From positions 1-31,647 of the IMG/VR virus record IMGVR_UViG_2681813201_000018: a stretch of 31,647 bases of DNA; one strand, given 5' to 3'. Position 1 is the stretch's first letter; the number at the start of each line of letters is the position of its first letter. A program made the position numbers. Source of the DNA: a virus. Lineage: Duplodnaviria > Heunggongvirae > Uroviricota > Caudoviricetes. This document shows, piece by piece, positions 9,001 to 12,000 of the stretch.

Positions 9001-12000
9001 ATCAGTTAAATGTAACGCTGCGAGCGTTACAAGGTGAAAACAAATGGCTTCAAACTGGATAAAGCTCGAGGTTATTACGCCGGATAAGCCGGAAATATTC
9101 AGGCTTGCTGAGATTCTGAATATTGATCCAGATGCCGCATTAGGGAAGGTTATTCGCTTCTGGGCATGGGCGGATCAACAAATGATAGACGGTAATGCAA
9201 ATTGTAACGCTCGCGGCGTTACAAAAAGTGCAATAGATCGCATCACTTTTATGGCTGGTTTTGCTGATGCGTTAATTCAGGTTGGATGGCTGGTCGAAAA
9301 TGACGTTGGGCTTTCTCTACCTAACTTTGAACGTCATAACGGAAAAAGCTCTAAAAAACGGGCGGTTACAAACGAGCGAGTTACAAAAATACGCGAACTG
9401 AAACGAAAAGGTAACGCTGCCATCGTTACACAAACGGATCAAAAAGCGTTACCAGAGGAAGAGGAAGAGGAAGATATAAATACTGATCTCCCCCTAAATC
9501 CCCCTCGCCAAAAACGAGCGTCTAAAAAATTCGAGCCGGAGGCTATTGAGCTGCCCGATTGGTTGCCGGAAACACTCTGGCATGAGTGGGTCCGGTTCAG
9601 ACAGGCATTGCGAAAACCGATTCGAACGGAGCAGGGCGCTAACGGGGCGATACGGGAACTGGAAAAATTCCGCCAGCAGGGTTTTACACCTGAGCAGGTG
9701 ATTCGACACAGCATCGCCAATGAATACCAGGGCCTGTTCGCGCCGAAAGGTGTTCGGCCTGAGACGTTGCTCCGACAGGTTAACACCGTCTCGTTGCCGG
9801 ACAGTGCGATCCCGCCAGGCTTCAGGGGGTAACGGACCATGAAAAATATTGCGACAGGCGGCGTTCTGGAACGCATCCGCCGACTGACCCCGCCACATGT
9901 AACCGCCCCATTCAGAACGGTAGCGGAGTGGCGCGAGTGGCAACTTGCTGAAGGCCAGAAACGTAGCGAGGAGATTAACCGCCTGAATCGCCAGTTGCGG
10001 GTGGAAAAAATTCTGAATCGTTCAGGCATCCAGCCGTTGCACCGTAAATGCTCGTTTGCGAATTACCAGGTGCAGAACGACGGCCAGCGATACGCGTTAA
10101 GCCAGGCGAAATCCATCGCCGATGAACTGATGACCGGGTGTACAAATTTTGCGTTCAGCGGAAAACCTGGTACCGGGAAGAATCACTTAGCGGCATCTAT
10201 CGGGAATCGCCTGCTGAAAGACGGTCAGACAGTGATTGTGGTTACCGTGGCTGATGTTATGAGCGCCCTGCACGCCAGCTATGACGACGGGCAGTCAGGC
10301 GAAAAATTTTTGCGGGAGCTGTGCGAAGTGGATCTGCTGGTTCTTGATGAAATTGGCATTCAGCGCGAGACGAAAAACGAGCAGGTGGTGCTGCATCAGA
10401 TTGTTGATCGCCGGACAGCGTCGATGCGCAGCGTGGGGATGCTGACAAACCTGAACTATGAGGCCATGAAAACATTGCTCGGCGAGCGGATTATGGATCG
10501 CATGACCATGAACGGCGGGCGATGGGTGAATTTTAACTGGGAGAGCTGGCGTCCGAATGTTGGTCAGCCAGGAATTGCGAAGTAATTTTTACCGGGAGGA
10601 AATTTTAATGGAGACTGTTTTTGACGCACTGAAAGCAATGGGAAAAGCCACATCCATAGAACTTGCTGCGCGACTTGATATCAGTCGTGAAGAAGTGCTG
10701 AACGAACTATGGGAACTGAAAAAGGCTGGTTTTGTTGATAAAAGCGCGTACACCTGGCGTGTGGCTGATAACAACGTTCAGCAGGAACAGCCAGCGCAGG
10801 CAGAACTGCCGGAAGAAACCACCACAGCAACAGTAGCGAAAATCTCAGAGTGCGATTTAACCGCAACGATTGAACAACGCGGACCACAAACGGCTGATGA
10901 GCTGGCTACATTGTTTGGTACCACATCACGCAAAGTGGCTTCAACGCTGGCAATGGCAATCAGCAAAGGTCGTCTGATTCGCGTAAATCAGGGCGGTAAA
11001 TTTCGTTACTGCATACCGGGCGATAATTTACCAGCAGAGCCGAAAGCAGCATCGGTAGCGGAAACTGATGGTAAGGCCTTTCCTCATCCCGCAGGTGTTG
11101 CATTACCAGTACAGGAGGCTGCAACACAGGAAGATATTAAAACAGAAACGGTGGCGGACATTGTGCAGTCGCTTGAGAAGCGAGTGGATAATCTGGTTCT
11201 GCCATCGCTGCGACAGGCAAACCGCGAACTGCGTCGGGCGAAAAGTGATATCCGGAAATGGGAGCGAGTCTGTGCCGCGCTGCGGGAGCTGAATAAATAT
11301 CGCGATATTGTCGCCCAGCTTTGCCGGGAGGAAACCAGTGAGCAACATTAATTACCAGGCACTGCGAATGGCGGCAGAAAATGCAACCCCTGGCGAATGG
11401 TGTTCTGATGATTATGGGTTAATTGCTGATGCCGGACTGAACGCAAATTACTACATAGCATCATGCTCAGGACCAGATAATCGCGCCAATAAGCGATTCA
11501 TAGCAGCAGCCAATCCGGCTACCGTGCTGGCACTGTTGGATGAACGGGAAGCCCAAAGCAAACGCATTGCAGAGCTGGAGACTAATCTTGCTGCGCTTGC
11601 GGCGGAGAATGCGGGGCTGAATAAATTTATCGTACAGAGTTGCTACGTGTTTGATGGCGAGCAGGATGAACTATCTGATGCGTATATCTGCGCAATAGAC
11701 GGAAGGATGCCGCAAACCCCAGCCACCGACGCTTTCTTGTCGGATGTGCGGGCTGGGGCGTTTAACGACCTTTGCGCGGCGTTTGTCAGGCACGCAAAAG
11801 TTGCAGGACTGGATGATGCCGATACCGTAACGCTTAAGGAAGTGACAGAAGCATTGTTGCATTGTGCGGAACAGATTCGCGCGCCTGAATAATTAAATTT
11901 AGTGTTGTAAATAAAATTTAATCCTTAACCGGAAGGATTTCTGCACCCTCAGAACAGCAGGAGGCCACCCGAAAGGGTGGTAGTGAAATGCGAAAGTTCA

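Follow-up and report, generated by a model that had tools for sequence, protein, structure and literature searches.

Palindromes, phased half-sites and a purine tract mark a predicted replication origin inside the initiator gene of a Rac-like prophage

Introduction

Iteron plasmids (such as those that rely on RepA of pPS10 or pSC101, on pi of R6K, or on TrfA of RK2) employ winged-helix initiators, which act on helix-phased repeats situated beside an unwinding element; in some of these plasmids, inverted repeats bound by initiator dimers serve autoregulation. The replisome organiser G38P of Bacillus phage SPP1 binds repeats within its own gene 38 (oriL), next to an AT-rich segment, and those are direct repeats rather than 19-base pair (bp) palindromes. 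In phage lambda, the iterons are 19-bp imperfect inverted repeats located in the middle of gene O, beside an AT-rich tract (PMC7466680). The present analysis concerns a locus of related design in a virus of the Caudoviricetes (IMG/VR record IMGVR_UViG_2681813201_000018, positions 1 to 31,647; this whole stretch of 31,647 bases is termed 'the window'), where a series of palindromes and shorter ‘half-sites’ is found within, and immediately before, the gene for a replication initiator.

These palindromes and half-sites are probably the double-stranded DNA binding sites of the initiator's N-terminal domain (‘N-domain’) and, in combination with an adjoining purine-rich and AT-rich segment, constitute the predicted replication origin of the prophage. 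On the best reading, the core of that origin occupies approximately 9362-9504, in the part of the gene that encodes a linker between two protein domains, and the palindromes at 9012 and 9204 act as auxiliary elements. An origin of the lambda style, or an array of initiator sites, had been suggested by the original prediction for this locus; the 19-bp inverted-repeat form of the sites, their position in the middle of the gene (PMC7466680) and the comparative data described below all make that suggestion a likely one.

Palindromes and half-sites around the initiator gene

The three near-identical palindromes that had been reported at 9012, 9204 and 9411 are indeed present, and are accompanied by several lone half-sites:

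9012-9030, GTAACGCTGCGAGCGTTAC: site A, GTAACGC-TGCGA-GCGTTAC, 0 mismatches, non-coding
9204-9222, GTAACGCTCGCGGCGTTAC: site B, GTAACGC-TCGCG-GCGTTAC, 0 mismatches, coding for part of the N-domain (codons C-N-A-R-G-V-T)
9411-9429, GTAACGCTGCCATCGTTAC: site C, GTAACGC-TGCCA-TCGTTAC, 1 mismatch (innermost arm base), coding for part of the linker
9365-9369 and 9380-9384: direct pair of GTTAC half-sites, 15 bp apart, left part of the core cluster
9446-9452, plus strand: half-site GCGTTAC, read A-L-P, abutting the purine tract
9192-9196: GTAAT, a degenerate half-site 12 bp ahead of site B (most relatives have GTAAC at +148)

A search of the whole window for GTAACGC-N5-GCGTTAC with up to two mismatches returns these three matches and no others, whereas shuffled sequence contains a mean of 0.11 such palindromes and none of 100 shuffles reaches three. 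The concentration extends to shorter words: 7 of the 16 CGTTAC hexamers in the window fall within 9012-9452. The additional GTTAC half-sites described earlier at 9364-9386 and 9446-9453 can also be located (GTTAC at 9365 and 9380, and GCGTTAC at 9446-9452). A repeat with a period of 14 nucleotides (nt), at 9356-9387, spans the paired GTTAC half-sites, which in close relatives are found at +321 and +336, with the second flipped to GTAAC in some of them. The last half-site lies 23 bp past the right arm of site C, and is read in a frame other than the one that gives V-T in the remaining right arms.

As had been proposed, the palindromes lie both within and before the initiator gene. Site A occupies the 77-bp gap between a ydaT-like gene and the initiator gene, where it starts 32 nt before the ATG at 9044 and ends 13 nt before it, while sites B and C are inside the gene. 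The encoded protein comprises an N-domain (approximately residues 1-122; 9044-9409), a disordered linker (approximately residues 123-165) and a C-terminal helical domain; in the structure model the predicted local distance difference test score (pLDDT) is below 50 at residues 125-149, between the two folded domains. The site C cluster (9362-9452) corresponds to codons 107-137, and thus to the interdomain region. The start-to-start distances between palindromes are 192 bp (A to B) and 207 bp (B to C), and this spacing of about 200 bp, which had been remarked upon as unusual for iterons, is explained by an arrangement in which the core is at the third site and the other two are outlying, a layout that is kept in relatives (at +148 and +357). 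Site C is accordingly proposed as the putative core initiator-binding site of the origin, and sites A and B as putative auxiliary initiator-binding sites.

Selection on the DNA of the sites

Sites B and C both read G/C-N-A-x-x-V-T, and the palindromes might on that account simply reflect a recurring peptide motif (G-N-A-x-x-V-T), or else chance, and possess no function at the level of nucleic acid. To that reading, next to no credence can be given. Site A is non-coding, only 0.11 palindromes are expected, and relatives translate this DNA in other frames: in phages TL-2011b, ZX5 and BUCT554 the site C palindrome is read V-T-P-T-A-L, rather than G-N-A-x-x-V-T. Many relatives with unrelated upstream genes and flanks also carry, at -18 to -44, an upstream palindrome whose arms are those of site A.

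The synonymous positions are equally informative. Approximately 270 distinct related loci were gathered by tblastn and IMG/VR scans, and codon usage was compared across 25 class-1 homologues of less than 88% nucleotide identity. Of 69 conserved codon columns, six display low third-base entropy (0.25 or less), and the arm codons GGT, AAC, AGC and GTT account for four of the six (a placement with a chance probability, by our own arithmetic, of about 2e-5); their third bases are retained in 23/24, 24/25, 19/19 and 24/24 sequences, respectively. Other conserved glycine and valine codons use all four third bases, the spacer bases of the palindrome are free to vary, and GC-rich phages, too, are fixed for the rare codons GGT and GTT. 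The reading frames and synonymous positions already contradict an origin of the palindromes in peptide motif or chance, and the possibility raised with the original prediction, that amino acid motifs might explain the palindromes entirely, does not hold.

The same conclusion is reached from more distant relatives. In relatives that are only 45-65% identical in protein, from phages of Klebsiella, Enterobacter, Xanthomonas, Ralstonia and Pseudomonas, the palindrome is kept at +148 and again at about +357, and a counterpart of site B is found at +148 or +160 in these and in E. coli phages. The search was seeded with GTTAC and left the flanking bases free, yet the G and C there are conserved at 88% and 93%, and the density of GTWAC is 13.8/kb at the locus versus 1.67/kb in the flanks. 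Frozen synonymous sites, alternative reading frames, a non-coding copy and the class switching described below together indicate that the palindromes are conserved independently of codon constraint, as the original prediction had asked to be checked; as far as sequence comparison can establish it, this shows that selection acts on the DNA of the sites and not on the protein.

Might the selected element instead be RNA? Sites A and B fold as hairpins of 9-10 bp (-11 and -11.9 kcal/mol), site A is placed just before the Shine-Dalgarno sequence, and arm changes between half-site classes stay complementary, all of which would suit hairpins that govern processing, stability or translation of the early transcript. 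Site C, in contrast, folds weakly (-4.9 kcal/mol, z = -1.1); the arms are invariant within a class and display no covariation; and the palindromes are flanked by lone half-sites of identical sequence, spaced at close to one helical turn. Among 57 distinct one-mismatch palindromes, only four are G-U compatible on the sense strand, and the antisense strand also gives four. There is no Rfam match in 8900-9600, and terminator-like hits near the sites are confined to the antisense strand, at a chance rate (2 versus 2.1 expected), with no T-run on the sense strand. Action through RNA is thus considered highly improbable. The minus-strand terminator-like flags fall on palindromes B and C (9202-9224 and 9411-9429), where short T-rich runs follow.

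Anatomy of the candidate origin

The stretch described earlier as GAGGAA-repeat and AT-rich follows directly upon the last half-site, and is itself followed by a C-run element:

9454-9474, plus strand: purine-only tract of 21 nt, (AGAGGA) x3.5 by Tandem Repeats Finder, encoding EEEEEE
9471-9500: AT-rich segment, AAGATATAAATACTGATCTCCCCCTAAATC, where a nearest-neighbour profile shows the duplex at its least stable within the locus
9490-9504, plus strand: C-run element, CCCCC-TAAAT-CCCCC

The 30-nt interval at 9451-9480 has a purine content in the top 0.03% of the whole window, and no 30-mer between 8800 and 10000 is less stable than the segment that comes directly after the purine-only tract (9471-9500). 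A homologous purine tract, AGAGAAGAGAAGAGAAGAGAA, is found in all half-site classes. Its arginine codons were examined with the motif defined on the protein (R-E-E-K-R-R-E), replacing an earlier version of the test in which the tract had been defined by its purine content and which was therefore circular. Within that motif arginine is encoded by AGA in 313 of 313 cases, versus 13% elsewhere in the same genes, although the genes average 55% G+C. By the measure of these codons, the purine tract is fixed at the nucleotide level. It is proposed to form part of the DNA-unwinding region, as well as a recombination joint between initiator modules, and 9471-9500 is proposed as the site of first melting.

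An intramolecular triplex (H-DNA) at the tract was also considered; the common form of the tract, AGAGAAGAGAAGAGAAGAGA, is a mirror repeat, but the (GAGGAA)n of the window is not, and no such structure is claimed. Similar paired C-runs, some of them with a following G-run, are observed downstream of the purine tract in many relatives belonging to several half-site classes, as well as in ydaU of the K-12 Rac prophage.

Throughout the related loci, the same elements recur in the same order. A purine tract is present at +300 to +540 in 223 of the 270, and 198 of these 223 possess a palindrome of the form 7-N5-7 that ends no more than 70 nt upstream of it; 182 of the 198 have an additional half-site in the interval from palindrome to tract, and 133 of the tract-bearing loci harbor a second palindrome with the same arm. 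The distances from palindrome to tract (loci L002-L309) form clusters at 11-13, 23-24, 34-36, 44 and 55 nt, as if each added half-site had introduced a step of about one helical turn. No DnaA box is found near the locus, the sole match to TTWTNCACA in the window being at 31507.

This invariant anatomy bears on the possibility that the sites are operators, for the initiator or for another repressor, which serve regulation alone by allowing the bound protein to block or pause early rightward transcription while the origin lies elsewhere. The location of site A, between ydaT and the ribosome-binding site of the initiator gene, would be well suited to such a role, as would the dispersal (rather than packing) of the sites over 420 bp; furthermore, sites A and B are missing or shifted in some relatives, Uetakevirus-like genes lack site A, and the class typified by phage epsilon15 has its first cluster at +54 to +100. 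What remains invariant, however, is a palindrome and half-site abutting a conserved purine tract and an unstable segment, which an operator does not need. Between 8200 and 9900 no promoter-like site is found beyond chance, apart from one on the cro side, and the position of the core over linker codons matches that of lambda-type origins. The two roles are compatible with each other; regulation as the only role is judged unlikely.

Half-site classes and the exchange of cassettes

At least five half-site classes can be distinguished (GCGTTAC, GCGGAC, GTGAC, GTCTAC and GCGCCAC), all with the same layout and all fitting the pattern GCG-(1-3 nt)-AC. Each genome carries a single class, and every site in a genome switches together. 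The class GTCCGC-N7-GCGGAC is that of epsilon15 and many of its relatives, and of phiPSA1, RPZH6, BUCT711 and Carin1; GTCAC-N9-GTGAC is found in Vibrio phage 1.211.A and its relatives, where the homologous codon encodes histidine in place of asparagine; GTAGAC/GTCTAC belongs to Ralstonia phage Raharianne and its relatives; and GTGGCGC/GCGCCAC characterizes a metagenomic group.

A pair of Klebsiella phages illustrates how such classes are exchanged. Between ST11-OXA245phi3.2 (GCGTTAC) and BUCT711 (GCGGAC), identity is about 40% across the N-domain and rises, from approximately +419 (at the purine tract), to 95-100% for more than 1.1 kb. Within the limits of what alignments can reveal, such comparisons show that class and N-domain travel as one recombination cassette, with the crossover at the purine tract. 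Since the sites lie within the very segment that encodes their probable reading domain, the specificity domain and the predicted origin are inherited and exchanged as a unit; the C-terminal domain of the initiator is interchangeable between relatives. The neighbouring genes vary widely (YdaT, methyltransferases, Roi, DnaC, DnaB, RuvC and DUF1064 are all represented), and the N-domain encoded over the sites is therefore their only constant partner.

That constancy also bears upon the identity of the binding protein. Helix-turn-helix (HTH) regulators are encoded just upstream, and repeats resembling the operator of YdaT occur at 8537 and 8963; the sites might thus belong to a host factor, or to a phage regulator (a YdaT/CII-like protein, CI or Cro), for a purpose unrelated to initiation. 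A host factor is argued against because phages of the same host genus and the same backbone carry different classes, which follow the N-domain. The palindromes also persist in phages that have no YdaT and that possess different neighbours, and the published YdaT operator, an inverted repeat of the form TTGATT-N6-AATCAA, differs from GTAACGC-N5-GCGTTAC (PMC9986795). On these grounds YdaT was rejected as the binder, and the entire proposal of an unrelated binding protein appears quite improbable.

Of the YdaT-operator-like inverted repeats themselves, that at 8537-8554 (1 mismatch) lies at the start of the ydaT-like gene, and that at 8963-8980 (2 mismatches) just past its stop codon. The window contains seven such matches, versus 2.4 expected.

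The initiator, its relatives and its neighbours

The initiator gene is embedded in the following series:

7789-8208, minus strand: CI-like HTH repressor
8305-8547: Cro-like HTH gene
8544-8966: YdaT/CII-like gene
9044-9832, plus strand: replication initiator, 262 amino acids (phrog_2509 ‘replication initiation protein’, E 2e-88)
9839-10585, plus strand: DnaC-like helicase loader (PF01695 IstB_IS21; phrog_50; NCBIfam PRK12377 and DnaC)

The initiator matches no Pfam family at E of 0.01 or less, and no relatives with a solved structure were found. The label ‘YdaU-like’, under which it had been introduced, proves appropriate for its C-terminal 124 residues, which are 81% identical to those of K-12 Rac YdaU, and fails for its N-domain, for which alignment against K-12 YdaU (DUF1376) by hhalign returns a probability of 0.1% and hence no relation; a resemblance of the N-domain to DUF1376 is limited to weak hints at the level of the fold (BFVD E 0.05-0.2). 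By sequence, then, the N-domain is not of the YdaU/DUF1376 type, and the C-terminal domain alone is. Nor is the N-domain a member of the lambda O family, the match to PHROG phrog_678 (‘O-like’) covering only residues 99-236. It belongs instead to a family of 6,615 clusters (at 50% identity, E of 1e-3 or less) that has no Pfam model, and the fold matches of the structure model in BFVD include proteins named ‘replisome organizer’ and replication proteins of Gram-positive phages, at weak scores (E 1e-3 to 1e-2). The DnaC-like loader encoded next to the initiator is proposed as the partner that its C-terminal domain recruits.

The gene is also widespread: at least 80% of a 1-kb query around it is present in 679 of 5,426 complete E. 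coli genomes, O157:H7 included.

Shortly before the core cluster, a run of six A residues (9353-9358; Lys104-Lys105, AAA AAA) has synonymous sites that are frozen in the 25 diverged homologues. Its length varies (A5, A6 or A7) in the viral contigs L070, L041, L042 and L045, and the length variants give reading frames that encode the N-domain only, of 112-126 residues; homopolymer sequencing error, pseudogenes and deliberate slippage are all candidate causes.

Elsewhere in the window, matches at the Rfam gathering score are found at 462-606, 2168-2346, 7094-7145, 14305-14476, 16649-16850, 16988-17071 and 17976-18231. The families represented are SraC/RyeA with SdsR/RyeB, RalA, DicF, sok, C4 antisense RNA with its targets and isrK, sRNA-Xcc1, STnc100 and AgvB. 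A partial tRNA-like match is located at 17830-17889.

A proposed mechanism and its weight

The dyad symmetry of the palindromes and the winged-helix-like fold of the N-domain suggest that a dimer of that domain would bind each 19-bp palindrome. Further protomers could then occupy the flanking half-sites, which are spaced 11-15 or 23 bp apart (approximately one to two helical turns), so that a core assembly would cover about 9362-9452, over the codons of the disordered linker. Such an assembly, possibly looped to the palindromes at 9012 and 9204, might strain the DNA and thereby open 9454-9500, after which the C-terminal domain, to judge from the domain architecture, would recruit the DnaC-like loader and the host helicase. 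The distal palindromes (A and B) may also damp expression of the initiator, or the copy number.

Several considerations weigh against an origin at this locus, or at least against its details. The core contains one full palindrome and half-sites, where lambda has four iterons in tandem; the short AT-rich stretch at 9471-9500 ranks, by its instability, only in the top 2% of the window. Avoidance of single nucleotide polymorphisms in the palindrome arms is non-significant among 29 close E. coli relatives (permutation p = 0.42; 0.95 differences per site in the arms versus 1.17 elsewhere), and the deeper comparisons were relied upon instead because variation among these close relatives is too low. 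The half-site class maps imperfectly onto overall similarity of the N-domain: Xanthomonas phage SAC (L187, GCGTTAC) and Cobetia phage Carin1 (L183, GCGGAC) have N-domains that are alike, and closer to each other than either is to that of the window, and specificity may therefore depend on few residues. Comparison of genomes does not fully distinguish origin function from pure autoregulation, least of all for sites A and B. Finally, no binding, unwinding or replication experiment on any member of the family was found in the literature.

A bolder proposal can be offered only tentatively, and with slightly more doubt than confidence: that the locus represents an undescribed origin architecture of a very large initiator family, composed of a palindrome, phased half-sites, a GA-only tract and looping palindromes about 200 bp away, in which the N-domain and a half-site core of GCG-x(1-3)-AC have changed specificity together on at least five occasions. 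In the literature searched on oriJ, ydaU/ydaV, DUF1376, the epsilon15 origin and replication of non-lambdoid Shiga toxin (Stx) phages, coverage of which was incomplete and included few subscription journals, neither this origin nor its palindromes are described.

Implications

Should this reading be correct, the origin of a Rac-like prophage module in E. coli, including O157:H7, would be predicted to the level of single bases, and the prediction would extend to thousands of phages of Enterobacteria, Pseudomonas, Xanthomonas, Ralstonia and Vibrio, the initiators of which are now annotated as ‘hypothetical’ or, misleadingly, as ‘primosomal protein I’. It would also account for the observation that the mosaic joints of these replication modules fall at the purine tract. 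The family provides a natural series of variants, with initiator and sites matched in each, from which it might be learned how a winged-helix-like domain reads DNA, and an unrelated protein family in which the ‘origin inside the initiator gene’ design of lambda can be tested. If the architecture is in addition an undescribed one, the series would amount to a natural recognition code, accompanied by mutually orthogonal pairs of origin and initiator. In practical terms, the analysis marks sequence that should not be recoded synonymously in phage engineering, and suggests a source of orthogonal replicons.

Comparison with known systems

Among iteron plasmids, the repeats are tandem and direct (17-22 bp), lie outside the rep gene and are usually accompanied by DnaA boxes; here, in contrast, the principal unit is palindromic and lies within the gene, with no DnaA box nearby. 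The SPP1 initiator G38P shares the habit of binding within its own gene, but no sequence similarity to it is detected, and structural matches are weak (E 1e-3 to 1e-2).

The YdaU-YdaV module of the K-12 Rac prophage is closer. Its gene order is the same (repressor, cro-like gene, ydaT, initiator and DnaC-like ydaV), and its ydaU likewise contains a repeat cluster in mid-gene, at the homologous position, followed by a purine- and A-rich tract and a CCCCC-TAAAT-CCCCC element. It differs in that the N-domain is DUF1376, and in that the repeats are (A/G)TGTTCAAACA instead of GCGTTAC. In a K-12-type Rac ydaU (NZ_CP043201; L181, 1526-1632), five copies of (A/G)TGTTCAAACA are found in mid-gene, in both orientations, after which come an A-rich purine tract and CCCCCCCTAAATCCCCCCCGGGGG. 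The cluster is a candidate oriJ core; no base-level mapping of oriJ was found in the literature searched.

The most instructive comparison is with ori and O of lambda (and of the Stx phages). There, as is predicted here, the origin sits midway along the initiator gene, and 19-bp imperfect inverted repeats stand next to a tract that melts easily (here a putative one). In both systems, an N-terminal domain is the presumed reader of the sites and the C-terminal part would handle a helicase-loading partner encoded next door, and origin and specificity domain form one exchangeable module. The differences are equally clear. The N-domain described here has no detectable sequence relation to O, and the partner is a DnaC-type AAA+ loader, rather than lambda P. 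Lambda has four to six tandem iterons, whereas here there is one core palindrome with half-sites, and two further palindromes at distances of 192 and 207 bp, one of them outside the gene. The region presumed to melt starts with a nucleotide-conserved GA-only tract, instead of a plain AT-rich block. The locus is thus best read as lambda-like in its logic, and as distinctive in its dispersed palindromes, its phased half-sites and its GA tract.

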